A stretch of DNA of 64,000 nucleotides, taken from the NCBI GenBank assembly GCA_036570165.1, contig DATCPI010000116.1, forward strand, positions 28,107 to 92,106. The letters run 5' to 3'. Origin of the DNA: Candidatus Dormiibacterota bacterium (GTDB lineage Bacteria > Chloroflexota > Dormibacteria > Dormibacterales > Dormibacteraceae). The position numbers and the translations under genes are program-made. The notes beneath the pieces were generated by a model, which was not told the DNA's origin, searched no databases, and was given only the letters and a program-made list of their open reading frames with translations. Below are positions 32,152 to 64,000 of the stretch, piece by piece. How positions within the stretch are numbered: the stretch's first letter is position 1; each line of letters starts with the position of its first letter.

Positions 32152-35100
32152 GTGATCGAGTTGGCGAGCGATCAAGAGGCGTCCCTGCCTACGTCCACAA
32201 CCTCTTCCGCCCTGGACGCGGTAGCCGAATGGGCCAATGAGGGCCGGCGGCTGCATCGGTGGGCGCGACTCCTTCCCGTCATCACCGGGATCGCCGCCAC
32301 GCTCATCCTGGCTGCGGTCGGCTACCGGCTGTGGAGGGCGGACGTCGGCGCCGGTGAGCTGGTGGCCTGGGGTGGGGCTCTCTTCGTCCTGGCCGGCCTG
32401 GCTTACCTCAGCCAGCGCGTGCTCGACCGCAGCCTGGCGCGGCAGGCCCAACGACAGGCCTCGCTCCTCCAGGCGATCAGCGACATCGGCGAAGGGCTGG
32501 TGATCACGGAGAACGGCCGCTACATTGCCTCCAACGCCGCGTACCAAACCCTGACCGGGTACGACGCCGCCGAGCTCAGGGCCTTTGGATCTCTGATCGA
32601 GCTGGCCCCCGAAGAGGAGCGCCAGGGGCTGACCGACCAGCTTTCCAGCCGTTTGGTCGGCGGCGACGTGCCGCACCGCTACGAATCGGCGCTGATGACG
32701 AAGGATGGGCGCCACATCCAGGTCGAGACCGCCGTCCGCCGCCTGGCCGCCGAAGGCAAGCACCGGCTGCTCGCCCTCGTTCACGACATCAGCGAGCGGC
32801 ACCGCATGGAGGAGGCCGAGCGCGAGAGCGAGACGAGGTTCCGCACCCTGTTCGAGCAGGCTCAGGCGGGCATGGCCTTCGCGGCGCTGGACGGCCACAT
32901 CACCACCGTGAACCCCGCTTTTTGCCAGTTGGTGGGCTTCAGCCACGCCGAGCTTTCAAATCTGTCGCTGATCGACATCACCTACCCCGAAGAGGTCCCC
33001 GCCCTTCAGCAGGCGATGTCCCGCATGCTGGCGGGCCAGGAAGAGGGGACACGCATTGAGATGCGATACACCCGAAAGGACGGCGAGCCGGTTTGGGTAG
33101 ACGTCACGACCCGACTCGTGCGTGGCCCAGACAACAATCCGCTGTACCTCCAAACCGTCGCGGTCGACATTCGCGACCGCAAGCGAGCCGAGGTTCTGCA
33201 AGCGGCCCGTTTCGCGGTCACCCAGGCGCTGGTCACCTCGCCGGGCTGGGAAAAGGCGGCGCCGGGCGTCCTCGAAGGGCTGTGCATGACGCTCGATTGG
33301 GAGCTTGCCGAGTACTGGGAGGTCGATGCGGAACGCGAAGCGATGCACTTTGTGACCTCATGGAAAAGGCCGGGGCGGGACACTTCGAGCTACGAGGCCA
33401 CCGCGTCTCAGACGAGCTACAAGCGCGGCGAGGGATTGGCGGGGCGAGTATGGGAAACGGGTACTCCCGTTTCGATACAGGACGTCGCCTCCGACGATTC
33501 GCCACGCTCGGCCGCCGCCGTCGCCGCGGGCCTAAAGGGAATCGTGGGATTCCCGGTGCGGAGCGGGCGCCGGGTCGTTGGGATGATCGCGCTTCACACG
33601 TGGGCGCCGCGCGACCTCGACGAGGGCTTGCTAGCGGTCATGAACGACGTCGGTTCGCAGATCGGCGAGTTCGTCGAGCGCAAGCGCGCCGAGGTGGCGC
33701 TGCAGGAGAGCGAAAAGCGGATGCGCTCAGTCCTCGACAACGTCTCGGACGGGATCGCCACGATCGAGCAGACAGGCATCATCGAGTCCGCCAACCCGGC
33801 TGTCGTCAAGCTGTTCGGCTATTCAGAGCAGGACCTGGTCGGTCAGCAGGCGGACGTGCTGATCGCGACCACGCATCGCAGCGCGTTCATCAACTACCTG
33901 GAACGGCGGCTCAAGCTCGACATCCCGGTCAGCGGCGCGCACGAGACGATGGGCAAGCGCAAGAACGGAAGCCTTTTTCCTCTCGAGTTCGTCGTCAGCT
34001 CGATGCAGATCGGCTCGCGTCATGTGTTCATCGCCACGCTCCGCGACATCTCGGAGCGCAAGGCGCACACCGATGCGCTCGAGTACCAGGCTCTGCACGA
34101 CGCGCTGACCGGGCTGCCAAATCGCAGCCTTTTCGGCGACCGCCTCCGCCAGGCGCTGTTGGCGGCGCGCCGCAACCAGAAGATGTTCGGCGTTCTGCTG
34201 CTCGACCTCGATCGCTTCAAGGACATCAACGACGCGCTCGGTCACGACCGCGGTGACAGCCTGCTGCAAGAGGTGACCGCGCGCCTGCGCGGCGTCCTGC
34301 GTGCGACCGACACGATTGCCCGGCTCGGCGGTGACGAGTTCGCGGTGCTCACCACCGACGCCAAGCATCCCGATGACGTGGTGTCCACCGCACGCAAAAT
34401 CCTGGCCGCCCTCGAAGGGCCTTTCGCGATCGCCGACCAGATGGTCGAGACAGGCGCCTCGATCGGCATCGCGATGTACCCCGTCCACGGGGACGATCCG
34501 AGCACGCTGCTGCGCCGCGCGGACGTTGCGATGTACGTTGCCAAGCGCTCGGGCGGCGGGTTCGCCGTGTACGCGCCGGAGCAGGAGGCGCAGACGCTGC
34601 GCCGTTCCGGGCTGGCCGGCGAGCTGCGGCGGTCGATCCCCCAGGGTGAGCTCGTCCTGCATTACCAACCTCAGGTCACCCTCGCCACTGGCGCGATTCA
34701 TTCGGTCGAGGCGCTGGTGCGCTGGAACCATCCCCGAGAAGGGCTCATGCCGCCCGACCGCTTCATCCCCATGGCCGAGGAGACCGGCATCATCCATCCG
34801 CTCACCGCGTGGGTCCTGGATTCAGCGCTCGCGCAGCTGGTCAAGTGGCTCGAGGACGGGCTGGACGTTTCCGTATCGCTCAACGTGTCGCCTCGCAACA
34901 TCGAAGACCACTCGTTGGAGGAGATGGTCGCGAGGGCCCTCGGCACGTTCAAAGTCGAGCCGCAGCGGCTCACGCTCGAGATCACAGAGGGTGTGGCGAT
35001 GGCCGCGGCCGCGGCCAAGGCGCTGCACAGGTTGAACGAGATGGGTGTGCGGCTGGCCCTCGACGATTTCGGGACCGGCTACTCCTCGCTGCTGTACCTC

Positions 35101-35382
35101 ATGCGCCTACCGGTTAACGAGATCAAGATCGACCGCTCATTCGTGTCGGCACTCGCCTCCGACCCTGACTCGGGCGCGATAGTGCGCTCGGCCGTCGGGC
35201 TGGGTCATAACCTCGGCCTGCGAGTGGTCGCGGAAGGTCTGCAGGACCGCGCCGCGGAAGCCATCCTGATCGAAGCCGGCTGTGATGCGGCGCAGGGATT
35301 CCTGGTGGGGCGGCCGACCGCCGAGCGCGACATGACGGACCTCCTGCTTGCTCACTCAGGCCTCGCCAAACAGCTGGACTGA
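32152..35382 (+). CDS. Membrane-anchored PAS-PAS-GAF-PAS-GGDEF-EAL c-di-GMP signalling protein
   Basis: Two N-terminal TM segments and repeated PAS-like blocks (VITENGRY..., ...TVNPAFCQLVGFSHAEL, ...ESANPAVVKLFGYSEQDL). I-site RATD sits 5 aa before an intact RLGGDEFAV. Intact EAL (VEALVRW), DDFGTGYSSL and EIKIDRSF. Confidence 0.9.
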   Translation: MIELASDQEASLPTSTTSSALDAVAEWANEGRRLHRWARLLPVITGIAATLILAAVGYRLWRADVGAGELVAWGGALFVLAGLAYLSQRVLDRSLARQAQRQASLLQAISDIGEGLVITENGRYIASNAAYQTLTGYDAAELRAFGSLIELAPEEERQGLTDQLSSRLVGGDVPHRYESALMTKDGRHIQVETAVRRLAAEGKHRLLALVHDISERHRMEEAERESETRFRTLFEQAQAGMAFAALDGHITTVNPAFCQLVGFSHAELSNLSLIDITYPEEVPALQQAMSRMLAGQEEGTRIEMRYTRKDGEPVWVDVTTRLVRGPDNNPLYLQTVAVDIRDRKRAEVLQAARFAVTQALVTSPGWEKAAPGVLEGLCMTLDWELAEYWEVDAEREAMHFVTSWKRPGRDTSSYEATASQTSYKRGEGLAGRVWETGTPVSIQDVASDDSPRSAAAVAAGLKGIVGFPVRSGRRVVGMIALHTWAPRDLDEGLLAVMNDVGSQIGEFVERKRAEVALQESEKRMRSVLDNVSDGIATIEQTGIIESANPAVVKLFGYSEQDLVGQQADVLIATTHRSAFINYLERRLKLDIPVSGAHETMGKRKNGSLFPLEFVVSSMQIGSRHVFIATLRDISERKAHTDALEYQALHDALTGLPNRSLFGDRLRQALLAARRNQKMFGVLLLDLDRFKDINDALGHDRGDSLLQEVTARLRGVLRATDTIARLGGDEFAVLTTDAKHPDDVVSTARKILAALEGPFAIADQMVETGASIGIAMYPVHGDDPSTLLRRADVAMYVAKRSGGGFAVYAPEQEAQTLRRSGLAGELRRSIPQGELVLHYQPQVTLATGAIHSVEALVRWNHPREGLMPPDRFIPMAEETGIIHPLTAWVLDSALAQLVKWLEDGLDVSVSLNVSPRNIEDHSLEEMVARALGTFKVEPQRLTLEITEGVAMAAAAAKALHRLNEMGVRLALDDFGTGYSSLLYLMRLPVNEIKIDRSFVSALASDPDSGAIVRSAVGLGHNLGLRVVAEGLQDRAAEAILIEAGCDAAQGFLVGRPTAERDMTDLLLAHSGLAKQLD

Positions 35383-35544
35383 GGTATGAGGGAAAACCCG
35401 GATGGTTTTCCCTCATCGCGCGTGTGGCTTCGCCGCAGGCGCTGCTCCCATTCCGGTATATCGATGGGACTTGATTAAGAGTCTGAAGCCGGCATCGCAT
35501 GGAGACAAAGAGACAAAGTCGCGACCGGGCGGAGCCCGGTCGCC
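35383..35544 (+). repeat. Hairpin-rich ~160-nt intergenic repeat, copy A (candidate structured RNA; strand tentative)
   Basis: About 92% identical (hand alignment) to 36417-36577. Hairpins: ATGAGGGAAAACC/GGTTTTCCCTCAT (35386-35416), GCGCGTGTGG/CCGCAGGCGC (35418-35442), TCCCAT/ATGGGA, and GCGACCGGG/CCCGGTCGC (35521-35543). Confidence 0.7.
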
Positions 35545-35556
35545 CCGGCCACGCTT

Positions 35557-36393
35557 GTGAAAGCGATTGTGCTCGGGGCCGCAGGGCAGCTTGGGTCGGC
35601 GCTTGCACGGCTGATCGGCGAGGACTCCGGTGTGACGCATGCGGAGGTGTCTGTCACCGATCAGCATGCTCTTGATGCTCTCCTGAACAGCCGGAGTCCG
35701 GAGCTGGTGTTCAACTGCGCCGCATACAACGCGGTGGACCGGGCAGAGGCGGAGCGGGCCCTGGCCTATGCGGTCAACTCGGAAGGCCCGGCCAACGTCG
35801 CCATGTCGTGCGCGCGCCATGGGGTCCGGCTCGTCCATTTCTCGACCAACTTCGTGTTCGACGGTGCCCTCGAGCGCCCTTACGTCGAGACCGACATTCC
35901 GGCGCCGCTCAGCGTCTACGGATCATCCAAGCTCGAGGGGGAGCAGAGGGTGCTGGATCTTCTGCCGGAGGCGCTCGTGATCAGGACCTCCGCAGTCTTT
36001 GGTGACACGGGCTCGGCAGTCAAGGGCGGGAGCTTCCCCGAACGGATCGTGTCGCGTGCCCGGCTCGGTCTGCCGCTGCGAGTTGTGGCCGACCAGAGGG
36101 TCAACCCGACTTACGCGGGCGACCTGGCCCCGGCCGCGATCAAGCTCGCGGAAAGCCGCCTGGAAGGTGTCGTCCATGTCGTCGCCGCGGGTTGCGCGGG
36201 CTGGGACGAATTCGCCCGTGCGGCGCTGTCGGAGCTGGGCGTCACTGCGAAGGTGGAAGCCATTGTGTCCGCCGAGCTGGCCACGCCTGCGGCAAGACCG
36301 CTCAACGGATGCCTTGAGTCCAGTCGGGCGGCCCCGCTGAGGCCCTGGCGGGAGGGGCTCCACGAATGGGCCGTGAGGCGTCGTGGAGCATAA
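35557..36393 (+). CDS. rmlD: dTDP-4-dehydrorhamnose reductase
   Basis: MKAIVLGAAGQLGSAL, FNCAAYNAVDRAE and STNFVFDG...PLSVYGSSKLEGE (YxxxK). GTG start. Confidence 0.8.
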   Translation: MKAIVLGAAGQLGSALARLIGEDSGVTHAEVSVTDQHALDALLNSRSPELVFNCAAYNAVDRAEAERALAYAVNSEGPANVAMSCARHGVRLVHFSTNFVFDGALERPYVETDIPAPLSVYGSSKLEGEQRVLDLLPEALVIRTSAVFGDTGSAVKGGSFPERIVSRARLGLPLRVVADQRVNPTYAGDLAPAAIKLAESRLEGVVHVVAAGCAGWDEFARAALSELGVTAKVEAIVSAELATPAARPLNGCLESSRAAPLRPWREGLHEWAVRRRGA

Positions 36394-36416
36394 AAAAGGC
36401 TCGGGCCGGGCGATTA

Positions 36417-36577
36417 GGTATGAGGGAACACCCGGATGGTTTTCCCTCATCGCGCGTGCGGCTTTGCCGCAGGCGCTGCTCCCATTCCGGTATACGGATG
36501 GGACTTGATAAGAGTCTGAAGCTGGCGTCGCGTGGAGACCAAAAAACAAAGTCGCGACCGGGCGAAGCCCGGTCGCC
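36417..36577 (+). repeat. Hairpin-rich ~160-nt intergenic repeat, copy B
   Basis: Direct-orientation copy of 35383-35544 with 13 differences including a 1-nt indel. It is flanked by a perfect 28-nt duplication (36388-36415 and 36594-36621). Confidence 0.7.
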
Positions 36578-36887
36578 ACGAGCAGGATCCGAGGCATAAA
36601 AAAGGCTCGGGCCGGGCGATTTCTCGACACCGGCTCCGAGCTTGGCTGCGGGGGGTGAGGATCTAACTGATGATGATGACCCCGAATTAACTTTTCCTCT
36701 CTGCTCCCATCCCTTTGACGGTGCGCGCGCGCAGACGCGCACGTTAAAAGTGTAGGAGTGAAGAGGCGCGGAATCCGCGAGCAATTTGTTGGATCTGTGC
36801 ACTTTTTCAACGACGAAACGACTACGTCAGTCGGGGATTACCAAGCCTGAGCAGTTGTGCAGGCGACCGCCAGATGCTTAGGATGCG

Positions 36888-37268
36888 TTGGTTTCAGCAA
36901 ACGAATTGCACACTTTGATCACATCGAACGATTTAGCAACTCGCCTTGGCGTGAGCCGGGCCACCGTTCTTCGCGCCGTGGCGAGGGGGCTCCTCAAGCC
37001 CGCCTCTGTCACCCCGGGAGGCCACCGCCGATTCCTGCCTGAGGACATCGAGGACCTAGCCGGCCGGCTTGAGGCGCGGCCCGCGGAGCTGGTCAGCTCG
37101 AAAGAGGCGGCGCGGCTCCTCGGGGTCAGCCAGCAGACGGTGAACCGGGCCGCCCGGGAAGGGCGGCTGCATCCAGCCTCGGTCACGCCGGGCGGGCATC
37201 GACGCTTTTCCCGCTCGGCGATCTATGACTCGCTGCGCGAAGTCGATCACAACGGGACGAGAGCCTGA
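36888..37268 (+). CDS. Tandem-duplicated BldC/excisionase-type (MerR-like HTH_17) DNA-binding protein
   Basis: There are two homologous halves: LATRLGVSRATVLRAVARGLLKPASVTPGGHRRFLPEDIEDL and AARLLGVSQQTVNRAAREGRLHPASVTPGGHRRFSRSAIYDSL. Start is uncertain (in-frame TTG at 36888, 36906 and 36915). Confidence 0.7.
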   Translation: MVSANELHTLITSNDLATRLGVSRATVLRAVARGLLKPASVTPGGHRRFLPEDIEDLAGRLEARPAELVSSKEAARLLGVSQQTVNRAAREGRLHPASVTPGGHRRFSRSAIYDSLREVDHNGTRA

Positions 37269-39694: not shown

Positions 39695-40275
39695 GAACTC
39701 GAGACCGCGACAACCTCAACCTGACGCTGCTTGCGCTGCTGTGTGCGCTGCTCATGCTGCTGCCGTTGGTGACGACTTTCGACGACCTCCTCACTGCGTG
39801 GGCGATGGGGCTCGGTGCGAACAACCCATTGCAAACGATCGTCCCGGTCGAGGCGCGGATGGTGGTGGGTCTCCTCGGCCTGGCGGGAATACATGCGGCG
39901 GCGTCCGGAAGTCACCTCGTGGTCTGGGATGGGAGCGGCGCGATGCACACTCTGTACATCTCGTGGAACTGCATCGGTTGGCAGAGCCTGATCCTGCTTG
40001 GTGTAAGTTTGCTGTCCGGCCTGCGCGGGCGACATCCACTCGAAGCTCGCGTCCAGGTCATCGTCATCGGCGTTGCCGGCACGATGCTGCTCAACCTCTT
40101 GCGCGTCGCTGCGGTCGCGGGCATCGCCGCTACGGTCGGCGTCACGCCCGCCGTCCTCTTTCACGATTACGGAGGCACGATCCTTCTCATCTCATTCCTC
40201 TTTGTGTTCTGGATGTTCGTTCAACGGTGGATTCTCGGTTCGGTGCCGTCAGACGAGCTTGAGGTGGCCGCGTGA
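39691..40275 (+). CDS. Minimal exosortase/archaeosortase-family protein (194 aa)
   Basis: Polytopic protein with ordered motifs: ISWNCIGWQSL (Cys94), LLNLLRVAAV (Arg138) and VLFHDYGGTIL (His158). The spacing resembles the Cys/Arg/His core of exosortases. ATGA overlap with the GT2 gene. Confidence 0.7.
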   Translation: MRTRDRDNLNLTLLALLCALLMLLPLVTTFDDLLTAWAMGLGANNPLQTIVPVEARMVVGLLGLAGIHAAASGSHLVVWDGSGAMHTLYISWNCIGWQSLILLGVSLLSGLRGRHPLEARVQVIVIGVAGTMLLNLLRVAAVAGIAATVGVTPAVLFHDYGGTILLISFLFVFWMFVQRWILGSVPSDELEVAA

Positions 40276-42500
40276 ACCGATGGCTTCGACTCGTCCTTCA
40301 GACAGCCCTTGGCCTGGTGCTGCTGTGGTTGTGGCTGCGCACCGTTTCGCTCACCGAGGTGATGAGCCATGCGCGAGTCCACAGCTGGGCCCCGGTGCTC
40401 CTGATGATCGCCCTCTTCCTACTGACGAGCCTCATCAGGGCCCGCCGCTGGCTGATTCTGCTGCGCCCGCTCGCCCCGGTCGGGATGGTCAGGGCGTTTG
40501 CCATGAACGCGGCCGGCGGACTCCTCAACTACGTGCTGCCGATTCGCTCGGGAGACGCCGCGCGCGCGTGGTGGCTGTGGCGGCGCCATCGCGTGCCGGC
40601 GGGATCGGCCCTGGCCACCATCGTGGTCGACAAGGCCTGCGACCTCGCCGCGGTGGCATTCGTCCTGGCGCTGCTCGAGGTGATCGCCTTGACCGGGATC
40701 GTGAGCGCTCCGCGCGGGCTCCTGGGCGCTGCCGCCCTGGCGGTCGCGCTGCTTGTCGCCGTGCTGGGAACGGCGCTGCTCGGCCCGCGGCTGGCGCGGT
40801 CATGGCTGGCCAAAAGGTTGCTGCCATCACGATTTGCGACGGCGATCGCGGGTCAAGCCTTTGCGTTCCGGGCCGGGGCTCGAGGTTTGTGGACTCCGGC
40901 GCTGGCAAGCCGGCTTGCCCTCCTGACGGTGCTGGCGTTGGTGATCGACGCCTTCAACTTCACGCTGCTGTTCGCCGCGGTGGGGATCTCGGTTCCGCCG
41001 CTGAAGGCGATGGCCGCGTATCCAGCGCTGCTGCTGAGCTTCGCCGTTCCGGCCGGGCCTGGATACGTCGGCAACCTGGAGGTGGCGGGGTCGCTGGTCC
41101 TGGGTGGCGGCCTGGGGTTGGCCCCGGCGGTTGCCGCCGGCGCCATCGTCCTGTACCACGCGCTCACAGCGGGATACGCCCTCGTCCTTGGACTCCTGGG
41201 CTTCCTTCTCGTCGGGGGCCGGCGCGCTGTTCGCGCCGGGGGGCCGCGCCGCGTAGCGGTCTTCCATTGCGGATTCACGTATTCGGGCGGCGGCGAGCGG
41301 ATCGTCATCGAAGAGGTGTTGGGACTACGAAGACGTGGTTACGACGTGGAGTGCTACGCGCCGACCGTCGATGAGTCGCGGTGCTACCCGGATTTGATTG
41401 GCGAGGCGCGCGTCCGAACTTTTCTGCCGCAGCTGCCGCGCTGGTTCCCGTTGCGGGAGGCAGTTCAGATGGCGGCTACTTCTTTGCTGATGCCTCTTTA
41501 TGCGTGGCGCTTTCGCGGAGTCGACGCCATCGTCGGGTGCAACCAGCCGAGCGCATGGATCGCCTGGTGGGCGGCGAGGTTGATGGACGTGCCCTACGTG
41601 GTCTATCTGAACCAGCCGAATCGCCTGGTGTATCCGCGCAACATCGACCGCGAGACGGGATGGGTGGCCAACGCCGACTACAGGCTGCTGGCGGCGATCG
41701 TGCTGCGCGCGACGCGATTCGTTGCGTGGGCCGACCGGCGCTCCGTGCAGGAGGCGGACCAGCTGCTCGTCAACGGCGATTACATCGGCGACATCATCCG
41801 GCGCACTTATCGTCGCGAAGCGGCTGATTGCCCGGCGGGTTGCCATGTTGCCGCGTCGGGCTTTCCGCTGCCCGTCGATGCGCGCTTTGCAGGTGGTTTG
41901 ACCATCAACGGTTATCCGATCCGGCGGCCGTACGTGCTGCTGACCAATCGTCACTACCCGCAGAAGCGATTCGACCTCGCGATCAGGGCGATCGCCGAGG
42001 TGCGCAAGCTCCACCCGCGAGTACAGCTCGTGATACCGGGTCCCTTCACTACACACACGGAGTCGCTCCAGGCACTGGTCGCGGAGCTGGGGCTGGCGGA
42101 GGCAGTGCTCTTCCTCGGCCCGATTGCAGAAGACGAGCTGCAGAAGCTGTACGAGGGAGCCGCCGTCTACGTATATCCGGCACCTGAGGAAGATTTCGGC
42201 ATGGGGGTCATCGAGTCGATGGCCAAGGGCGTGCCGGTGGTGGCGTGGAACCAGGCGGGGCCGACGGTCACTGTCGGGCCTGGCACGGGGCACCTTGCGG
42301 AGCCGCTCGTGGTGAGCGATTACGCGGCGGGCATCTCGCGGCTGCTTGACGATCCGTCGGAGAACCAGGCGACGGGAACACGTGCGTTCGAATGGGCGCG
42401 GCGGTTTGACTGGGAACGACACATCGACACGATGGAAAAGGTCGTCCTCGAGGTGGCACGCTCCCACGAACGATTCGCGGCGGAGGCTGCCACCGCTTGA
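40272..42500 (+). CDS. Flippase-like (LPG-synthase-TM / UPF0104) membrane domain fused to a GT4 (GT-B) glycosyltransferase
   Basis: The N-terminal ~320 aa are polytopic and carry LIRARRWLILLRPL...AGGLLNYVLPIRSGDAARAWWL. The C-terminus has a GT4 E-x7-E region (EEDFGMGVIESMAKGVPVVA). GTGA overlap. Confidence 0.8.
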   Translation: MNRWLRLVLQTALGLVLLWLWLRTVSLTEVMSHARVHSWAPVLLMIALFLLTSLIRARRWLILLRPLAPVGMVRAFAMNAAGGLLNYVLPIRSGDAARAWWLWRRHRVPAGSALATIVVDKACDLAAVAFVLALLEVIALTGIVSAPRGLLGAAALAVALLVAVLGTALLGPRLARSWLAKRLLPSRFATAIAGQAFAFRAGARGLWTPALASRLALLTVLALVIDAFNFTLLFAAVGISVPPLKAMAAYPALLLSFAVPAGPGYVGNLEVAGSLVLGGGLGLAPAVAAGAIVLYHALTAGYALVLGLLGFLLVGGRRAVRAGGPRRVAVFHCGFTYSGGGERIVIEEVLGLRRRGYDVECYAPTVDESRCYPDLIGEARVRTFLPQLPRWFPLREAVQMAATSLLMPLYAWRFRGVDAIVGCNQPSAWIAWWAARLMDVPYVVYLNQPNRLVYPRNIDRETGWVANADYRLLAAIVLRATRFVAWADRRSVQEADQLLVNGDYIGDIIRRTYRREAADCPAGCHVAASGFPLPVDARFAGGLTINGYPIRRPYVLLTNRHYPQKRFDLAIRAIAEVRKLHPRVQLVIPGPFTTHTESLQALVAELGLAEAVLFLGPIAEDELQKLYEGAAVYVYPAPEEDFGMGVIESMAKGVPVVAWNQAGPTVTVGPGTGHLAEPLVVSDYAAGISRLLDDPSENQATGTRAFEWARRFDWERHIDTMEKVVLEVARSHERFAAEAATA

Positions 42501-44125
42501 GGCTGCTGCCCAGGATCCTTCCCACCGAAGAGGAAGAGGAGCAGCGACTCGAGCAGCCAGATCCCGAGCCCCTGGGAGACACGAACGGTCCGTCGCTTCA
42601 TTGGGGCGGGCCGGCAATCGTGGCGGCGGGCGCCGCGATCCCGCGTCTCATTTATCTGTTCGCGTTCACGGATCCACAGAACGCAGGCCACGGGTTCACG
42701 GATGCCTATCACCACTGGCAAATTGCCTACTTGACCAAAGAGATCGGGCTCACCCACGGGCTACGCCTTTGGGACTTGCGGGGATGGGAGTACTACTGGG
42801 GGCTGCTGCACCCGGCTCTCACGGACCTTCTCTTTTTCGCCACCGGGTCACCGGACATCGTGCTGGCCCGGCTCCTGAGTCTTGTCTTCGGCTCCCTCAC
42901 CGTGGTGCTGATTTTTCTTCTCTGCCATCGCTACTGGGGCACAACCGTTGCGGTGGCCGCCAGCGCGTTTGCCGCGCTGGCACCGGCGAGCGTCTTCAAC
43001 GATGTCGCCGGCATGGCCGAACCGATTGGAGTCGCCCTGGTTCTCTTTGGAATCTGGTTGACGCCGAGGCATGGTTTCTGGGCAGGCGTGTCCTGGGCGT
43101 GCGCGGCGATGGCGAGGGTAGAGGCGTGGCTCTTCGGAGCGGGTCTGATCGTTGCCTGGCTGTTGGGAAGACGTCGGGGTCAGCCGCGGTGGTCGTTGGC
43201 GGCCGGCTGGGTGCTTGTGCTGGCTCTCTATGCGAAGTTTCTTTACGACCGGACCGGAAATCCCATCTATCCCGTCTACTGGAGCTTCCAGTTCGTCGCA
43301 TTTGGAGGGTTCGACTCGGGAGCGGTGGTTCCATCGGGCCAGGAGATGCTGGGGTTGCCGCTGGCTGGAGCCGTTGCGGTCTCGGCTGCCGGACTCGCTT
43401 GGTCCTTGTGGAAGCGACCACCTTCGTATTTGCTTCTCGTCTACGGATTCGGTTATTCGGCGTACAGCTTCGCCACGTTCCTGAAGGTCGATGACTGGAA
43501 AGAACGCCGCTTTGAGTTTCCAATGGACTTTGCCGCCATCCTCGTCGCAGTTCTGCTGTTCAAAGTCCTTCCGGAGCGGCGTCGGGGACTCGAGCCTCTA
43601 GGGTGGGCGATCGCGATTGCGGGTCTCCTGGTCGTCCAGATCTTTTGGATCCCGATCCAGAGTGCGTATTCCGCCACCGAACCTGGGTTCCGGGATCAGG
43701 TGCGCCTGGGACGTGCGATCGGGGTGGTCTACAACCGTCCGGAGTACAAGGGCGGGGGACTGACCGTGCCGGGCGACGATCCAACTCTGGTCTACGTATT
43801 GGTGCGTAACGAAAAGGTTCCGGGCGCTCGAATCTCGAGTGAGTTCTACGATCCTTTCTATTACCTGCCAGCCGGCTACCGGTATGCCGACCATAAGGAG
43901 AGCGTCGGAGCGTTGCTGAAATGCTGGCTGGCAAGCACGCAAACCCGGCTGCTCTTGGTGACGCCGCCCAGCGCGTTCAATCACTCGGTGGCGGATTACA
44001 ACGCCTTCATCGCCGACCATTCCCAGTGGTTTGTAGATACCGGGGCTCAATTGGACCCAGGGTGGTCACTCGTGGCTGTTCAGGTGCCAGCCCCTGGCCC
44101 GCACGAGTGCCCAGGGTCAGGGTAG
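42497..44125 (+). CDS. Polytopic membrane protein, GT-C (ArnT/PMT-like) putative glycosyltransferase
   Basis: About 11 hydrophobic segments, an acidic/aromatic first loop (FTDAYHHWQIAY) and a soluble C-terminal domain. Family assignment is by architecture only. TTGA overlap. Confidence 0.5.
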   Translation: MRLLPRILPTEEEEEQRLEQPDPEPLGDTNGPSLHWGGPAIVAAGAAIPRLIYLFAFTDPQNAGHGFTDAYHHWQIAYLTKEIGLTHGLRLWDLRGWEYYWGLLHPALTDLLFFATGSPDIVLARLLSLVFGSLTVVLIFLLCHRYWGTTVAVAASAFAALAPASVFNDVAGMAEPIGVALVLFGIWLTPRHGFWAGVSWACAAMARVEAWLFGAGLIVAWLLGRRRGQPRWSLAAGWVLVLALYAKFLYDRTGNPIYPVYWSFQFVAFGGFDSGAVVPSGQEMLGLPLAGAVAVSAAGLAWSLWKRPPSYLLLVYGFGYSAYSFATFLKVDDWKERRFEFPMDFAAILVAVLLFKVLPERRRGLEPLGWAIAIAGLLVVQIFWIPIQSAYSATEPGFRDQVRLGRAIGVVYNRPEYKGGGLTVPGDDPTLVYVLVRNEKVPGARISSEFYDPFYYLPAGYRYADHKESVGALLKCWLASTQTRLLLVTPPSAFNHSVADYNAFIADHSQWFVDTGAQLDPGWSLVAVQVPAPGPHECPGSG

Positions 44126-53754: not shown

Positions 53755-53829
53755 AGCGGAGTGGAGCAGCGGCAGCTCGTCGGGCTCATAACCCGAAGGT
53801 CGTTGGTTCGAATCCAACCTCCGCAACCA
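53755..53829 (+). tRNA. tRNA-Met(CAT), initiator type
   Basis: Hand-folded cloverleaf: acceptor AGCGGAG/CTCCGCA with a 1:72 A.A mismatch, D arm GAGC/GCTC, and anticodon arm TCGGG-CTCATAA-CCCGA (three G:C pairs next to the loop). T arm GTTGG-TTCGAAT-CCAAC. CCA is encoded. Confidence 0.85.
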
Positions 53830-54028: not shown

Positions 54029-54104
54029 GGTGCCGTAGCTCAGGTGGTAGAGCGCGCGACTCATAATCGCGTTGTCGCTGGTTCGAGTCCAGCCGGCACC
54101 ACCA
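54029..54104 (+). tRNA. tRNA with CAT anticodon, probably tRNA-Ile2 (lysidine-modified) rather than elongator tRNA-Met
   Basis: Acceptor GGTGCCG/CGGCACC, D arm GCTC-AGGTGGTA-GAGC, anticodon arm CGCGA-CTCATAA-TCGCG, T arm GCTGG-TTCGAGT-CCAGC, ACCA end. The anticodon and T arms resemble E. coli ileX as I remember it. It is directly fused to tilS. Confidence 0.8.
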
Positions 54105-59970: not shown

Positions 59971-61164
59971 TTGTCCAATGAGTCTGGTGTTGTCCTGACC
60001 GAACCGAAGGAGGGGACCGAAGACTCAGCTTACGCGATGACCATGGAGGACTACCTCCACTACGAGGCGGAGGCCTTCAAGACCCCCAACCACGGGGACA
60101 TCGTGGATGGGATCGTGGTCCGCGTCGACGCGGACGAGGTCCTGGTCGACATCGGGGCCAAGGCCGAGGGTGTCATTTCGAGCAAAGAGCTGGGCCTGCG
60201 CGGCGACCTGGATTCGATCGGGCTTGTGGCCGGCGACCAGATCAAGGTCTACGTCCTCCAGCCGGAGAACGACGAGGGCAACGTGGTCCTCAGCCTGCGC
60301 CGGGCGCGAGCGGAGACCACGTGGATCGTCGCCGCGGAGAAGCAGGCCGACGGCTCGGTCATCGACGCGGACGTACGCGAGCAGAACAAGGGCGGCCTGA
60401 TCGTCAACATCCTTGGACTTCGAGGGTTTTTGCCTTCAAGCCAGGTGGCGCGGGCGTACGCGGGCAGCCTGGAGTCGCTGGTCAGCCAGCGGATCCCGGT
60501 GAAGATCCTCGAGGTCAACCGGAAGCGCAACCGGCTGATCGTCAGCCAGAAGGCTGCCGAAGATGAGGATCGCGCGCGCAAGCGCGAAGAGCTCTTCAGC
60601 CGGCTCCAGACGGGGACCACGGTCAAGGGCACTGTGTCCGGAATCACCAGCTACGGAGCGTTCGTGGACATCGGTGGCGCGGACGGGCTGATTCACATCT
60701 CCGAGCTGTCGTGGGACCGGGTCTCCAAGGTCACGGATGTCCTGCAACTGGGCGATGAGGTCACCGTGAAGGTGATCAAGCTCGACCCGGAGCAGACGCG
60801 CATCTCACTTTCCCTGCGGCAGCTGCAGCAGGACCCGTGGGAGAGGCTCGTGCAGTCGATGCCGATCGGCTCGATCGTGGAAGGCCAGGTCACGAAGACC
60901 AAGAAGTACGGGGCCTTCCTCCAGATCATGCCCGGGATCGAGGGCCTTCTCCACATCTCGGAGCTCTCGTGGGCCCACGTGGAGCGGACAGAGGACGTGC
61001 TCAAGGTAGGGGAGACGCTGCAGGTGAAGGTGATCGGAATCGACACCGCGCGCCGCCGCATCTCGCTCAGCCTGAAGCAGCTCTCGGCTCCGCCGGCCAC
61101 CCTCGCCAACGGGCACTCCGAGCGGCGGCCGAACGAGTACGACGAGACAGAGGACGAGACCTAG
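59971..61164 (+). CDS. rpsA: 30S ribosomal protein S1 (four S1 domains)
   Basis: Repeated S1 motifs (GDIVDGIVVRV..., GLIVNILGLRGFLPSSQ, GTVSGITSYGAFVDIGGADGLIHISEL, GQVTKTKKYGAFLQIMPGIEGLLHISEL). TTG start 8 nt after AGGGGG. Confidence 0.9.
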   Translation: MSNESGVVLTEPKEGTEDSAYAMTMEDYLHYEAEAFKTPNHGDIVDGIVVRVDADEVLVDIGAKAEGVISSKELGLRGDLDSIGLVAGDQIKVYVLQPENDEGNVVLSLRRARAETTWIVAAEKQADGSVIDADVREQNKGGLIVNILGLRGFLPSSQVARAYAGSLESLVSQRIPVKILEVNRKRNRLIVSQKAAEDEDRARKREELFSRLQTGTTVKGTVSGITSYGAFVDIGGADGLIHISELSWDRVSKVTDVLQLGDEVTVKVIKLDPEQTRISLSLRQLQQDPWERLVQSMPIGSIVEGQVTKTKKYGAFLQIMPGIEGLLHISELSWAHVERTEDVLKVGETLQVKVIGIDTARRRISLSLKQLSAPPATLANGHSERRPNEYDETEDET

Positions 61165-61230
61165 CTCTATCCCGGTAGCTTCGTCTTTACAGCCAGGCTT
61201 GTTTTTTGTTCGCCCGCCTGCTTGAGTTGA

Positions 61231-61289
61231 AAGCGGCAGGTGTTGGTCGGCTCGGGGGAGGGGAGGGCCCGACGGGCCAGCTGCCGCTT
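61231..61289. terminator. Long GC-rich hairpin between convergent rpsA and the O-antigen-ligase-like gene
   Basis: AAGCGGCAG (61231-61239) pairs with CTGCCGCTT (61281-61289), with inner GTCGG/CCGAC pairing. It lacks a clean U-tract, so its function as a terminator is inferred only. Confidence 0.35.
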
Positions 61290-62875
61290 CAGCTTCCCAG
61301 GGCCGCGAGGCGCTGCTTCGCCGGAGCGTAATAAGGATCGATCTCGAGGGCCCTTTGATAGTGCCGGCGCGCGTCGGCCGTTCGGCCCAGCTCCGCCTCG
61401 CGGTCGCCAAGCTCGACGTAAAGGCTGGGATCGGTCTCGCCGAGGTCGGCCGCGCGCCTCATCTCGTCCACCCCTCGCTCTACCGAGCCTTGGGCTACGA
61501 GGCCCTGCCCGAGCGCCCAGTGATAGCGCGACTGAAGCGGATCCACGACCACCGACAGATCGACCCTCCCCTGCCGGTACCACACGTCGGCCAGCAGCGG
61601 AAACGCTGCAAGCCCAATCGCAAGTAGGGCCAGACCAATCGCCACGCCAGTGCGCCAGAACGCCGGACCGGGCGTCGCCGGAGCAGCCGCAACAGAATTG
61701 CTGCCTGCATCGGATTCGGCAGCTCGGACCGCCGACCATGCTGTGCCGGCCAGGAGCCAGAAGACCCCGGTGGCCGGAGCCCAGTCGAAGTTGAAGACAA
61801 CCCATACGGTGTAGCCGATGCAGGCTGCGGTCAGCGCTCCGACGTCGCCGGCGAAGCGCCAGCGCCATGTGCCGCGGAACAGGATCACCAGGACCAAGCC
61901 GATCGTCGCCAGGCCGAGGATGCCCTGCGTGGCCGCGGTTTCGAGTATCCCGGAGTGGGTTCGGTCGTAGATGATTCCAGGCGCCCAATCAGCGCTGACG
62001 AAGCGCCCAAACGCCAGGCCGGTCGCATCCTCGCCCCAGCCGGTCACGGGTCGTGTAGCGATCATGCGAAGCGCGTCGGGCCACAGCTGGAGCCGGCTTC
62101 GTGCCGGATCGTTGTTGAGGAGGCTGAGCGGGCCGAGCACGATCAGCCATAAGCCCGCCAACAGCAACCCGCTGGACACAATGGCCGACGTGGCCACCCA
62201 GAGCCGGCGTCGAAACGCAAAAACAGCCAGGGCCAGGCAGCCCGCAAGCGCACCCAATCCACCGCTGCGGGAGGTTGACACCACGAGTCCGCCCGCCATC
62301 ACTGCCGCGCCCAGCCACCACGCCACGACGAAACGGTCACCCCGAAAACCACGTGCGACCGCGAGTGGGAATCCCACGGCGATCAATGCGCCGAGAAGGT
62401 TGGCGTTCCCGGTGTTCCCGTCAGGCCGAAAGCTGACCCCGGCGGCAGACTGCATCAGCGCTTCAAGGCTGACGACAGTGGTACCGAAAACGAAGGCCGG
62501 AACCACCCAGTTTCGCGGCCGCGAATCCCGCAAGAGCCACACCGGAACCGCAAGCAGTCCGAGATAGCCGAGACGAACCGGAAGCGACTCGTAGCGCGAA
62601 TACGAGCCGGCGAAGCTTAAAGGCCAGGAGATCGAGAAAACGAAGGCCAGGATTGCCGCCCCAGCTGCTGCGAAAAGCGGCCACCGGAGCCTTCCCAATC
62701 CAGGGCCGCCGGGCGCCAATAGAGCCACACCGGCGCCGAGGCAGGCGCCCACGATCACGATCGAGGCACGAGGCAGGATGAATTCATCCACCAGGTTGGG
62801 TATAAAGACGATCGGAAGGGCCAGGGCGATGGCCGCGGGGAGATAACCACCGAGGCGTCCGAGAAGGGGCCTCAT
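61289..62875 (-). CDS. O-antigen ligase/polymerase-like (Wzy_C-type) polytopic membrane protein with C-terminal TPR repeats
   Basis: About 11 TM segments with a central periplasmic loop (…SRLQLWPDALRMIATRPVTGWGEDA…). C-terminal TPR-like ...DARRHYQRALEIDPYYAPA. ATG 62875 is preceded by GGAGG. Confidence 0.7.
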   Translation of the reverse strand: MRPLLGRLGGYLPAAIALALPIVFIPNLVDEFILPRASIVIVGACLGAGVALLAPGGPGLGRLRWPLFAAAGAAILAFVFSISWPLSFAGSYSRYESLPVRLGYLGLLAVPVWLLRDSRPRNWVVPAFVFGTTVVSLEALMQSAAGVSFRPDGNTGNANLLGALIAVGFPLAVARGFRGDRFVVAWWLGAAVMAGGLVVSTSRSGGLGALAGCLALAVFAFRRRLWVATSAIVSSGLLLAGLWLIVLGPLSLLNNDPARSRLQLWPDALRMIATRPVTGWGEDATGLAFGRFVSADWAPGIIYDRTHSGILETAATQGILGLATIGLVLVILFRGTWRWRFAGDVGALTAACIGYTVWVVFNFDWAPATGVFWLLAGTAWSAVRAAESDAGSNSVAAAPATPGPAFWRTGVAIGLALLAIGLAAFPLLADVWYRQGRVDLSVVVDPLQSRYHWALGQGLVAQGSVERGVDEMRRAADLGETDPSLYVELGDREAELGRTADARRHYQRALEIDPYYAPAKQRLAALGS

Positions 62876-63012
62876 CGCGCCTCCAGCTAAAGGAAAGCTA
62901 CCGGTCGACTTGGACGTTATATTAGGTGTGGAGGTACCGGCGGGTACCAAAGCAAACGTTGGAGGAGGTGCTGGCCCCACCCTAGACGTAGGAATCCCAG
63001 GAGGAAAGAACC

Positions 63013-64000
63013 TTGTATCCGTTTGAGAGATTTACTGAGCGAGCCAAGAAGGTTTTGACTCTCGCTCAAGAAGAAGCAGAACGATCGCACCACAGCTACA
63101 TAGGCACCGAACACTTGCTCCTGGGCTTGCTCCGTGAGGGTGAAGGCCTGGCTGCCAAGGTTCTCAACAACCTTGGCGTGGAAATCGGGAAGGTCCGCCA
63201 GACCATCGAATCTGTTCTAGGTCGCAACGAGCGGATCATCATCCAGCAGATCATCCCAACGTCGCGTGTGAAGAAGGTGATCGAGATCTCCTTCGAAGAA
63301 GCGCGCCGGATGGGTCACAACTACGTCGGCACCGAGCACCTCTTGCTGGGGCTTTTGATCGAGGGCGAAGGCATCGCCGCTCATGTTCTCGAGGACCTGG
63401 GCGCCACGCTCGAAAAGGTCCGGTCCGAGATCGAGCGTCTGCTCCACGACTCGAGCGCGGAGACAGAGGCCGAGCCCGCTCCGAAGAAGCCATCGAAGAC
63501 GCCTCTGCTCGACCAGTTCGGTCGCGACCTCACTGAGCTCGCCCGCCGGAATCAGCTCGATCCGGTCATCGGGCGCGAGACTGAGATCGAGCGCGTCATC
63601 CAGATCCTGAGCCGCCGAACCAAGAACAACCCGGCCCTCATCGGCGAGCCTGGCGTGGGCAAGACCGCGATCGCCGAGGGTCTGGCGCAGCAGATCATCC
63701 AGGGCAACGTCCCTGAGTCGCTGCAGCACAAGCGCGTGCTGACTCTCGACATGGGCGCCCTGGTCGCAGGCACCAAGTACCGCGGCGAGTTCGAGGAGCG
63801 GCTCAAGAAGATCCTCGACGAGATCCGGTCGAGCCGTGAGGTGGTGCTCTTCATCGACGAGCTTCACACTCTCGTCGGTGCCGGCGCGGCCGAAGGCGCA
63901 ATCGACGCCGCCAACATCCTCAAGCCGGCTCTGGCTCGTGGAGAGATCCAGTGCATCGGCGCGACGACCCTGAACGAATACCGCAAGTACATCGAGAAGG
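63013..64000 (+). CDS. clpC: ATP-dependent Clp protease ATP-binding subunit ClpC (3' end runs off the window)
   Basis: Own translation from TTG 63013 (GGAGGAAAG upstream): [40 protein letters not shown], a second Clp_N repeat, then [10 protein letters not shown] (Walker A) and LFIDELH. Not in the track because it is edge-truncated. Confidence 0.9.

Follow-up and report, generated by a model that had tools for sequence, protein, structure and literature searches.

A structured, probably non-autonomous interspersed repeat at gene 3' ends in Dormibacterota, present in two copies around rmlD

Introduction

Among the small non-coding repeats of bacterial genomes, the pneumococcal BOX and SPRITE elements are, by analogy, the closest in behaviour to the subject of this study, a multi-hairpin element of about 175 nt that is present in two copies around rmlD in a 64,000-nt stretch of Dormibacterota DNA (hereafter the window: assembly GCA_036570165.1, contig DATCPI010000116.1, positions 28,107 to 92,106 of the forward strand). 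BOX is modular, with an A-B(n)-C layout in which modules may be absent or repeated (Croucher et al., 2011, PMC3049150). BOX and SPRITE mirror the coding strand and are enriched downstream of coding sequences, with no functional class of genes standing out, and SPRITE lies near 3' termini, where it may act as a terminator (PMC3049150).

The element also resembles REP/BIME sequences and, for its habit of abutting a stop codon, the MIRU repeats of mycobacteria. REP sequences act on mRNA stability, on Rho-dependent attenuation and on the stalling of ribosomes close to stop codons. The MIRU repeats, reportedly described by Supply and colleagues in 1997, are said to be 46-101 nt long and to carry small open reading frames (ORFs) that bridge a stop and a start. 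REP/BIME and REPINs have been considered together with RAYT transposases (Nunvar et al., 2010, PMC2817692), and Correia/NEMIS, RUP and ERIC as bacterial MITEs, i.e. miniature inverted-repeat transposable elements (Delihas, 2008, PMC2229807).

An initial annotation of the window had described the two copies and likened them to the eps-associated antitermination RNAs (EAR) that precede polysaccharide genes in Bacillus. We propose that they likely belong to a family of structured, non-autonomous mobile or repetitive 3'-end interspersed elements of Dormibacterota that has no entry in Rfam; ligand- or pathway-specific control of the glycan genes is not supported.

Two copies of one element

A repeat search and blastn place the two copies at 35382-35547 and 36416-36580 of the window, on the same strand and with a period of 1034 nt. 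Their limits as full-length members of the family are:

35382..35558, + strand: copy A, full length (covariance-model match 35385-35559, 163.1 bits; nhmmer model positions 1-175)
36416..36593, + strand: copy B, full length, with an aberrant tail CACGAGCAGGATCCGAG (covariance-model match 36419-36592, 155.8 bits)

The copies are 91.6% identical over 166 columns with one 1-nt indel, in agreement with the initial description of two same-orientation copies at about 92%. The unit of about 162 nt given there holds as a repeat and falls short as to its limits: copy A runs from the AGG at 35382 through a tail of 15 nt, conserved in the family, to about 35558. Its first base is also the last base of the stop codon (TGA, 35380-35382) of the preceding gene, which codes for a GGDEF-EAL protein, and its 3' end overlaps the GTG start of rmlD at 35557. 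With filters off, the covariance model finds exactly two copies in the whole window, and its next match, at 25 bits, is the first hairpin (H1) read on the opposite strand; neither blastn, nhmmer nor the covariance model with filters off reveals further copies or remnants in the window.

Copy A has orthologues behind the same GGDEF-EAL gene in five other loci (L029, L059, L067, L081, L155), and is the resident, orthologously retained copy between this gene and rmlD. Copy B is no closer to copy A than to copies in other species.

A family dispersed in soil Dormibacterota

Copies were retrieved by exact 19-mers, one from H1/H2 and another from the third hairpin (H3), so that each copy holds one of them, and about 8-14 kb around each copy was examined. 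The H1/H2 19-mer gave 59 loci in species-representative genomes, about 50 of them true copies, and these are nearly all in metagenome-assembled genomes (MAGs) of Candidatus Dormibacterota, including grassland bins named "Chloroflexi bacterium CF_nn"; the H3 19-mer gave at least 120 metagenome contigs among the matches listed. Altogether, nhmmer identifies 204 matches in 159 loci, 147 of full length and 132 distinct, and the public contigs with the element number at least 159, nearly all of them belonging to soil Dormibacterota. Single copies (153) prevail over head-to-tail arrays of two to four units (18). Beyond the copy that triggered retrieval we found one extra array per ~96 kb of flanking DNA, which implies tens of arrays per genome, and single MAGs (VBFH01, DASPXA01) hold at least 7-9 copies from exact 19-mer matches alone.

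Units measure 160-180 nt in 133 copies and 200-219 nt in 13. The longer ones (~205-212 nt) form a subfamily in which an extra hairpin of ~55 nt, GACCCGGCCCT...AGGGCCGGCGC, replaces the CTG between H2 and H3. It includes L024, L026, L033, L039, L047, L048, L059 and about 13 metagenome copies, and its extra stem covaries (CCGGCCCT/AGGGCCGG versus CCAGCCCT/AGGGCTGG). Other copies are truncated at their 3' side (L045, L083, L129, L156/L157, L127/L174). At L045 (6271-6385), the 5' half alone (H1-H3, model positions 1-115) lies between frr and uppS, with the uppS ATG (MDGNGRWA...) directly next.

The initial annotation had recognised no riboswitch or small-RNA consensus, and we found none either: cmscan at gathering and at permissive thresholds (to E = 10), in the window and in six other element loci, assigns the element to no Rfam family. 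The best matches in 35000-37000 reach 11.6-15.8 bits (E >=3), and only two tRNAs pass in the window. There is no blastn match to the element in plasmid and phage collections. A 19-mer match in a viral contig (L062) was dismissed as chance, as no H1/H2 was seen on inspection and nhmmer did not find it. In the literature we found no specific description of a Dormibacterota repeat or of a bacterial repeat anchored at stop codons, which is not proof of absence.

A few contigs carry labels of other phyla, i.e. L008, L024, L026 and L048 (Verrucomicrobiia SMAG_U11555), L014 and L023 (Sulfotelmatobacter SMAG_U11483), and L053, L034 and L011. In these the element follows the same orthologous genes as in Dormibacterota, for example in a DSHCT helicase context common to L007 and L008, which hints at MAGs with wrong labels or wrong binning and not at transfer between phyla.

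Among public contigs, L001 and L002 alone encode exactly this RmlD; they are ~1.0 kb long and have both of their ends within the repeat. Short-read assemblies break at the element, which could also serve as a lineage marker.

Position directly after stop codons

What defines the family is its position. Counting same-strand ORFs of at least 80 codons with a G+C content at third codon positions above 0.7, we found that the upstream ORF ends 1-6 nt before the conserved TATGAGG in 96 of 114 arrays (84%), and at the TGA of the element itself in seven more. The element's first bases, AGR-TATGAGGG, directly adjoin the stop codon of a co-oriented gene. The three bases that precede TATGAGG are A (71%), G (58%) and R (85%), so that the modal layout is a stop codon followed by AGR-TATGAGG, and gaps of 1 or 2 nt look like a stop codon that overlaps the AGR start. 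At L029 (4361-4400, - strand), a tandem duplication covers the element's first 23 nt; here the GGDEF-EAL ORF no longer has a TGA of its own and instead ends at the one within the TATGAGG of the partial copy. Seven other genes use the TGA of the element as their stop codon.

The genes upstream belong to about 44 unrelated families, including rplL, frr, a glnB-like gene, hisD and dnaJ, with Pfam matches to L7/L12, RRF, P-II, HisD, SLT transglycosylase, ABC ATPase, acyltransferase, VWA, DSHCT helicase, DnaJ and, for the protein of the window, PAS-GAF-GGDEF-EAL. The gene pairs that enclose the element are convergent in 46 cases, tandem with the element in sense in 44, tandem with the element in antisense in at most 11, and divergent in 6; the downstream gene is accordingly convergent in 46 cases, co-directional in 44 and otherwise placed in 17. 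As it is convergent as often as co-directional, the element is a 3'-end feature with a sense bias and not a leader of downstream genes.

This bears directly on the possibility that the window copies are a cis-regulatory leader, i.e. a riboswitch or an EAR-like antiterminator, for rmlD and the glycosyltransferase genes downstream. Copy A does end at the start of rmlD, copy B precedes genes for a helix-turn-helix (HTH) protein and for GT2 and GT4 glycosyltransferases, and the structure is conserved. However, downstream genes are unrelated across the family and convergent in about half of the cases, the element stands behind housekeeping genes such as rplL and hisD, L029 and L059 have the same operon but no copy B, the number of copies at the GGDEF-EAL/rmlD junction differs between species, and no Rfam family, EAR included, is matched. 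We regard a leader function as very improbable, and the proposed role for sugar and glycan genes falls with the spread of the element over ~44 unrelated gene families and at least 159 contigs.

Stop codon usage beside the element differs from the background of the same contigs (TAA 36%, TAG 40% and TGA 23%, versus 14%, 40% and 46%), although the sites counted are not independent. In L046 and L126, canonical terminator hairpins lie downstream of the element, which therefore stands between the stop codon and the terminator. Orientation is not related to the replication strand, as the mean GC skew of the oriented flanks is close to zero (p = 0.3-0.7).

The conserved TATGAGG holds an ATG, from which a small protein might be encoded. 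This ATG is kept in 117 of 132 distinct copies, and 43 of these 117 have an ORF of 30-31 codons that ends in the linker. Yet the length of the ORF varies from 15 to 69 codons, the 117 copies give 112 distinct peptides, the frame shifts with variants of H2, variation is compensatory in stems rather than synonymous, and there is no Shine-Dalgarno spacing. The element almost certainly does not code for a protein from this ATG, and we likewise rejected a small ORF or a bridging ORF as in MIRU, since neither length nor frame is conserved.

Structure and covariation

Copy A is built of an AGG lead-in, H1, H2, H3, an AU-rich linker, an H4 region, an A-rich linker, the terminal hairpin H5 and a tail, in this order:

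35386..35416 (35386-35398 / 35404-35416), + strand: H1, a perfect stem of 13 bp, ATGAGGGAAAACC / GGTTTTCCCTCAT, with loop CGGAT
35418..35442 (35418-35428 / 35432-35442), + strand: H2, 4 bp, a G·G mismatch, 6 bp and a TTC loop
35446..35469 (35446-35451 / 35464-35469), + strand: H3, TCCCAT ... ATGGGA, its inner CCG/CGG part imperfect here
35470..35520, + strand: linkers and H4 region, with AU-rich CTTGATTAAGAG, a variable H4 with a GCnnCGCnTGG box, and A-rich ACAAAG (from the family alignment)
35521..35543 (35521-35529 / 35535-35543), + strand: H5, the terminal hairpin, 9 bp and GC-rich, GCGACCGGG / CCCGGTCGC
35544..35558, + strand: tail, CCCGGCCACGCTTGT, with family consensus CCnnGCnACGCTGGT

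The four hairpins named in the initial annotation (H1, H2, H3 and the terminal one) are thus all present in the sequence, as is the single C·T mismatch that it reported in H1 of copy B.

Compensatory change maintains this structure across the family. RNAalifold recovers H1, H2 and H5. In 44 copies from genomes, 85.9% of the cells of the alignment are paired and double changes occur at 26 pairs, against 12.4 +/- 2 in shuffled alignments (none of 500 reaches the observed value) and at most 14 when the pairing is slid. For 102 distinct metagenome copies, which were not used to build the model but were fitted to it, the corresponding values are 89.4% of cells paired and 292 double-change cells, against 90 +/- 8 shuffled (0/500) and at most 71 slid.

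The stems differ in how they vary. H1 is paired in 96-97.5% of cells, with compensatory variants such as GAGAGGGAACC / GGTTCCCTCTC. H2 is the most variable stem, with double changes at 8 of 10 pairs and 98% of cells paired; its pair 53-124 is GC in 53 copies, CG in 32, AU in 8 and UA in 2, and none is changed on one side only. The G·G mismatch within this covarying stem is kept at the same place in 87 of the 102 distinct copies. H5 has double changes at 7 of 9 pairs and 94% of cells paired. H3 is imperfect, with 79-85% of cells paired in the family and few double changes. H4 was rejected as a conserved helix, being paired in only 61-66% of cells and not formed in the window copies. In sequence, H1 and the 5' arm of H3 are conserved in each of the two sets of copies, which were selected independently. 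Together with the kept G·G mismatch, the conserved H1 and H3 sequences suggest a dedicated protein reader, which could be a mobilising enzyme or a host factor.

The initial annotation had taken a change from U:G to C:G in H2 as a sign of a + strand RNA. The change itself is real, T35425·G35435 of copy A being C:G in copy B, but it carries no strand signal, because G·U pairs are nearly absent family-wide: H1, H2 and H5 of the 132 distinct copies hold 4001 Watson-Crick pairs, 16 G·U and 37 A·C (the G·U pairs of H3 rest on ambiguous alignment). A·C being at least as frequent as G·U, wobble pairs give no indication of the strand. Nor does folding energy discriminate, at -80.5 and -83.5 kcal/mol for the two copies on the + strand (z -4.9 and -5.4 versus shuffles) and -72.1 and -79.7 kcal/mol on the - strand (z -4.1 and -6.8), which justifies the caution on strand of the initial annotation. 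Hairpins that are read in DNA, or on both strands, agree with the scarcity of wobble pairs no less well than a + strand RNA does. The covariation shows that structure is under selection, and the acting strand and molecule, RNA or DNA, may be either.

H5 does not have the features of an intrinsic terminator. CCnnGCnACGCTGG comes after it on the + strand; on the - strand, the T-run noted initially after the terminal hairpin turns out to be weak, a short ACTTTGT, the T6 of copy B being atypical. H5 on the - strand is the sole terminator-like call of a site scan, with this weak T-run, and the region scanned contains no promoter-like sites.

There are no terminal inverted repeats, the ends AGRTATGAGGG... 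and ...GCnACGCTGGT showing no complementarity in 44 plus 113 aligned copies. No closing stem of the attC type is seen in the alignments, where 5' and 3' ends do not pair, and GTTRRRY-like strings at the 3' boundary are inconsistent.

Could the hairpins act as single-stranded DNA, moved by an HUH/Y1 transposase (of the IS200/IS605 or REP-RAYT type) or by an integron-type recombinase? Several traits are consistent with it: the many switches from one Watson-Crick pair to another almost without G·U intermediates, the conserved mismatch within a covarying stem, the absence of terminal inverted repeats, and the gene-element-gene layout around rmlD, which is cassette-like. However, IS200/IS605 and REP systems leave no target duplications, whereas here these measure 8-36 nt. 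The lack of a closing stem and of R''/L''-L'/R' symmetry sets the element apart from attC, the flanking genes are syntenic housekeeping genes rather than cassettes, orientation is independent of GC skew, and no HUH/Y1 or integrase enzyme turned up in the element loci, although no systematic search was made. We consider mobilisation of this kind unlikely.

Turnover at orthologous sites and target duplications

Orthologous sites differ in presence, number and orientation of the element. The window is syntenic with the Dormibacterota contigs L029 and L059, and the GGDEF-EAL/rmlD junction holds one copy in the window, two plus the 23-nt partial duplication in L029, and three in L059, one of them with the extra hairpin. 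The element follows dnaJ in L038 and a ferredoxin-like gene in L035, and is absent behind both in the window; it follows the glnB-like gene in L046 and not in L126. The "empty" site of L126 (8363-8400) reads TAG CCGGCCCCGGACTCGG... and resembles the 3' arm of H5 and the tail, and may be what a deletion left of an element and not a site that never held one. In four pairs of loci (L138/L089, L042/L102, L095/L144, L139/L080) the element has opposite orientations in the same convergent intergenic region, and in each the TATGAGG end is 2-9 nt from the stop codon of the co-oriented gene. In L035 it starts 3 nt after the stop codon even though a native spacer of ~45 nt still lies downstream, so that the position is not due to a lack of space.

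The window offers a clear case of an insertion. L029 and L059 have no element at the site of copy B; there, the rmlD stop is followed by an intact hairpin that is 100% conserved in the three species. In the window, copy B interrupts the loop of this hairpin and stands between the two members of a perfect direct repeat of host sequence (28/28 identical):

36388..36415, no strand: left 28-nt target duplication, GCATAAAAAAGGCTCGGGCCGGGCGATT, which includes the rmlD stop codon TAA (36391-36393)
36594..36621, no strand: right 28-nt target duplication, which with 36622-36645 rebuilds the intact conserved hairpin

Copy B is a separate and probably more recent insertion, and not a local copy of A. Copy A is 92.6-94.3% identical to its orthologues, against 91.6% to copy B, and the duplication around B is perfect, which argues against a recent copy of A. 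One may also imagine that copy B is the by-product of a local tandem duplication of copy A plus rmlD, followed by deletion of the second rmlD, with no repeat family at work in the window. The period of 1034 nt, the rmlD stop codon within the 28-nt repeat, and 13 nt before the second repeat that vaguely resemble the rmlD 3' end would suit such an origin. It is nevertheless highly unlikely, given the identity values above and the 28/28 flank, the independent occurrence of the family in at least 159 contigs, and the similarity of only ~63% (hand alignment) between the supposed remnant and the present rmlD end.

Duplications of this kind are a minority trait. Nine arrays have flanking direct repeats of host sequence of at least 10 nt (10-28 nt exact, up to ~36 nt with mismatches), where ~0.6 would be expected, and target duplications of 8-36 nt accompany about a tenth of the insertions. 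The repeat ends with the stop codon in six clear cases (L017, L070, L173, L152, L123, L036) and begins at it in four (window copy B, L024, L040, L068). In arrays, the repeated segment often takes in the spacer as well as the unit (L024, L029, L051, L066), which is the expected product of unequal exchange between flanking repeats. At the 3' boundary, stop-like TRR triplets are enriched 3-4x (33 of 101 at offsets -1 and 0), and only 11 of 42 copies have stop-like triplets of the same type at the two ends. Inverted copies in L052, L113 and L181 might have enclosed an autonomous parent, but the intervening 2.5 kb contain the same host gene in each and reflect synteny.

Such junctions invite comparison with retroposition of the short interspersed nuclear element (SINE) type or with template switching, in which an RNA or a nascent strand would be copied by microhomology into a nick or a fork located at a stop-like TRR triplet. 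One junction would then be fixed at the stop codon, and the other would vary and set the length of the duplication. This would account for duplications of variable length with one end at a stop codon, for the overlap of the stop codon with the AGR start by 0, 1 or 2 nt (TAA|ACG, TG[A]GG, T[AG]G), for the enriched TRR triplets at the 3' boundary and the stop-like triplets before about half of the internal array copies, and for 3'-truncated copies such as L045, L083, L129 and L156/157. On the other hand, the element has no linked reverse transcriptase or endonuclease, truncations concentrate after H3 instead of being spread, long duplications are a minority, and the triplets at the two ends seldom agree. 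We also know of no retroposition of the non-LTR (long terminal repeat) type in bacteria. We judge this mechanism doubtful.

A probable non-autonomous 3'-end element and its alternatives

In the initial annotation, scattered copies with target duplications and no covariation would have pointed to a repeat of the MITE or REP type and away from a cis-regulatory RNA. We found many scattered copies, some of them with target duplications, and clear covariation. The family is therefore best taken as a structured interspersed repeat, neither of the two options foreseen. With at least 159 contigs, folds at z -4 to -7, and differences in presence and copy number at orthologous sites, it has the properties of interspersed structured intergenic repeats of the BOX, ERIC and SPRITE type.

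The element is a modular repeat of five to six hairpins, in units of ~175 nt, and behaves as a non-autonomous mobile or repetitive element that settles at gene 3' ends, commonly between convergent genes and, in sense, inside operons, and rarely in divergent promoter regions. Between related species it is gained, lost, flipped and tandemly amplified, a minority of insertions keeping target duplications of variable length anchored at the stop codon. It would be transcribed as the 3' untranslated region (UTR) or the intercistronic part of the mRNA of the upstream gene. Its effect, if any, would be that of a generic folded 3' end, i.e. an exonuclease barrier, an attenuator in operons or a shield against Rho, with a possible influence on termination at the adjacent stop codon. 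The lack of inverted ends and of a fixed duplication is not the behaviour of a DDE-type MITE, and the target duplications speak against a mechanism of the IS200/REP type.

A more specific version, in which a mobile element integrates by anchoring one junction 0-2 nt from a stop codon and leaves the other variable, which would yield target duplications of 8-36 nt with the stop codon at their start or end, is improbable in our estimate. Such integration might proceed by microhomology-primed copying of an RNA or a single strand, SINE-like or by template switch. To our knowledge, no class of bacterial transposons has a target logic based on stop codons.

Several observations weigh against the family being a non-autonomous 3'-end repeat of this kind. 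We found no mobilising gene, terminal inverted repeats or fixed-length target duplication, and ~90% of copies show no long duplication. Selection against gene disruption does not by itself account for the precision of the junction, as in L035. That many species keep the element behind the same gene, and that its 5' half is conserved, fits a host-selected function equally well. Since G·U pairs are all but missing, it may be in DNA, and not in a + strand RNA, that the hairpins matter. Moreover, co-transcription with the upstream gene and any RNA-level effect are inferred.

A rather unlikely alternative, which overlaps with the one that we prefer, is a 3'-UTR RNA module selected by the host and working with the terminating ribosome. 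H1 would start within the footprint of the ribosome at the stop codon, so that termination would open H1 and refold the element. In this way mRNA decay, the access of Rho or read-through would be tied to translation of the upstream gene, and copies would survive only directly after a stop codon. The junction at 1-6 nt from the stop in 84% of cases, the sense orientation, the shift of adjacent stop usage to TAA, and the kept G·G mismatch and covarying stems are all in line with it, as is the fact that different species keep it behind the same housekeeping genes. Identity over the first 92 nt of the element at orthologous sites is 75-89%, a range biased upward as every copy had to contain an exact 19-mer, while flanking coding sequences are 78-87% identical overall and 57-70% at third positions, and the 5' half is thus more conserved than the synonymous sites of the flanking gene. 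Against this stand the missing + strand wobble signature (16 G·U versus 37 A·C in H1, H2 and H5), the selfish-type dynamics of flips, losses, arrays and target duplications, the distance of 9-28 nt from the stop codon in copy B and several others, the existence of element-free orthologues, and the non-independent orthologous sites counted in the stop-usage test.

With a non-autonomous 3'-end repeat as the likely identity of the family, the stop anchoring, sense orientation, lack of inverted ends and long variable duplications fit no standard scheme of bacterial transposition. Should the anchoring be mechanistic and not selective, it would imply a so far unknown insertion pathway, or a function coupled to translation termination. 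For RNA discovery, the family illustrates that strong covariation and a conserved mismatch need not mean a riboswitch.

Neighbouring features

A tempting but wrong regulatory annotation is removed, and there is a better candidate for control of the glycan genes. Downstream of rmlD, 36594-36850 of the window (L029 2850-3100, L059 3950-4216) is a non-coding stretch far more conserved than the adjacent genes, with 61 consecutive bases identical in the three species and the further identical blocks GCGCGGAAnCCGCGAGCAA and TTTTCGACGACGAAACGACT. Read on the - strand, the stretch closes with a hairpin and T6, which make up a canonical terminator facing rmlD. It is in the loop of the hairpin of this stretch that copy B sits, and the 28-nt duplication restores that hairpin. 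The stretch may encode a small RNA on the - strand or be the true control region of the HTH/GT2/GT4 genes.

Further features of the window are the following:

36888-37268: a protein of 126 aa with two HTH_17/MerR/excisionase-like HTH matches, directly upstream of the GT2 gene and overlapping its start, with the same layout in L059
37575-37679: an imperfect (GCAACG)n hexanucleotide repeat in the 5' part of the gene for an 808-aa GT2 glycosyltransferase
53755-53826 and 54029-54101, + strand: two tRNA genes (Rfam, 63.3 and 70.8 bits)
40001-44000 and 60001-64000: AT skew of -0.20 and +0.19 in 4-kb bins, versus <=|0.07| elsewhere

Comparison with known systems

Dormibacterota are an uncultured phylum abundant in soil, and the 175-nt family recurs at the 3' ends of genes as central as rplL, frr and the glnB-like gene. 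Like BOX and SPRITE, the element is interspersed, non-coding and strongly folding. It differs from them in its unrelated sequence and in its host, the phylum of BOX and SPRITE being Firmicutes. BOX has terminal inverted repeats matched to an insertion sequence, which the Dormibacterota element lacks, and neither anchoring within 0-3 nt of a stop codon nor target duplications of 8-36 nt are reported for BOX or SPRITE. Also unlike these, it consists of five or six hairpins in a row, each independent of the others, and has a conserved G·G mismatch.

With REP/BIME it shares the character of extragenic hairpin repeats found at gene 3' ends and in operons, often clustered, whose stems are kept by compensatory change. 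REP/BIME are transcribed and have generic effects at mRNA 3' ends, with no pathway-specific control, and the same may hold for the Dormibacterota element. However, REPs are single palindromes of 20-40 nt in alternating orientation, paired in REPINs, and give no target duplication, whereas the units described here, 175 nt in the typical case and 160-219 nt over the family, stand head-to-tail, may be flanked by one and are not known to come with a RAYT gene.

Like MITEs, the element is small, non-autonomous, multi-copy, intergenic and polymorphic for presence, and would be co-transcribed with neighbouring genes; MITEs have terminal inverted repeats and a short target duplication of fixed length (e.g. 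TA), and it has neither. The likeness to MIRU lies in an intercistronic position in operons, an orientation that follows the genes, the abutting of the upstream stop codon and the variation of tandem copy number. Unlike MIRU, it has no conserved ORF, half of its sites are between convergent genes, and its unit is made of several hairpins.

Integron attC sites are also structured sites directly after the stop codon of the preceding ORF, with structure partly kept over sequence, and rmlD is bracketed in a cassette-like manner. The element is nonetheless a series of independent hairpins and not a single imperfect hairpin closed by R''/R' (RYYYAAC/GTTRRRY) and L''/L' boxes, its flanks are syntenic housekeeping genes, its head-to-tail arrays have no ORFs from one unit to the next, and no integrase was seen in its loci, where no systematic search was made. 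As for EAR and riboswitch leaders, the likeness is that of a structured non-coding sequence beside polysaccharide genes in this one window; the element has no Rfam match and its distribution is unrelated to such genes, being set by the upstream stop codon.

The class of repeat is therefore a familiar one. Less familiar are its phylum-wide conservation, the conserved mismatch and, above all, the anchoring at stop codons with long and variable target duplications.

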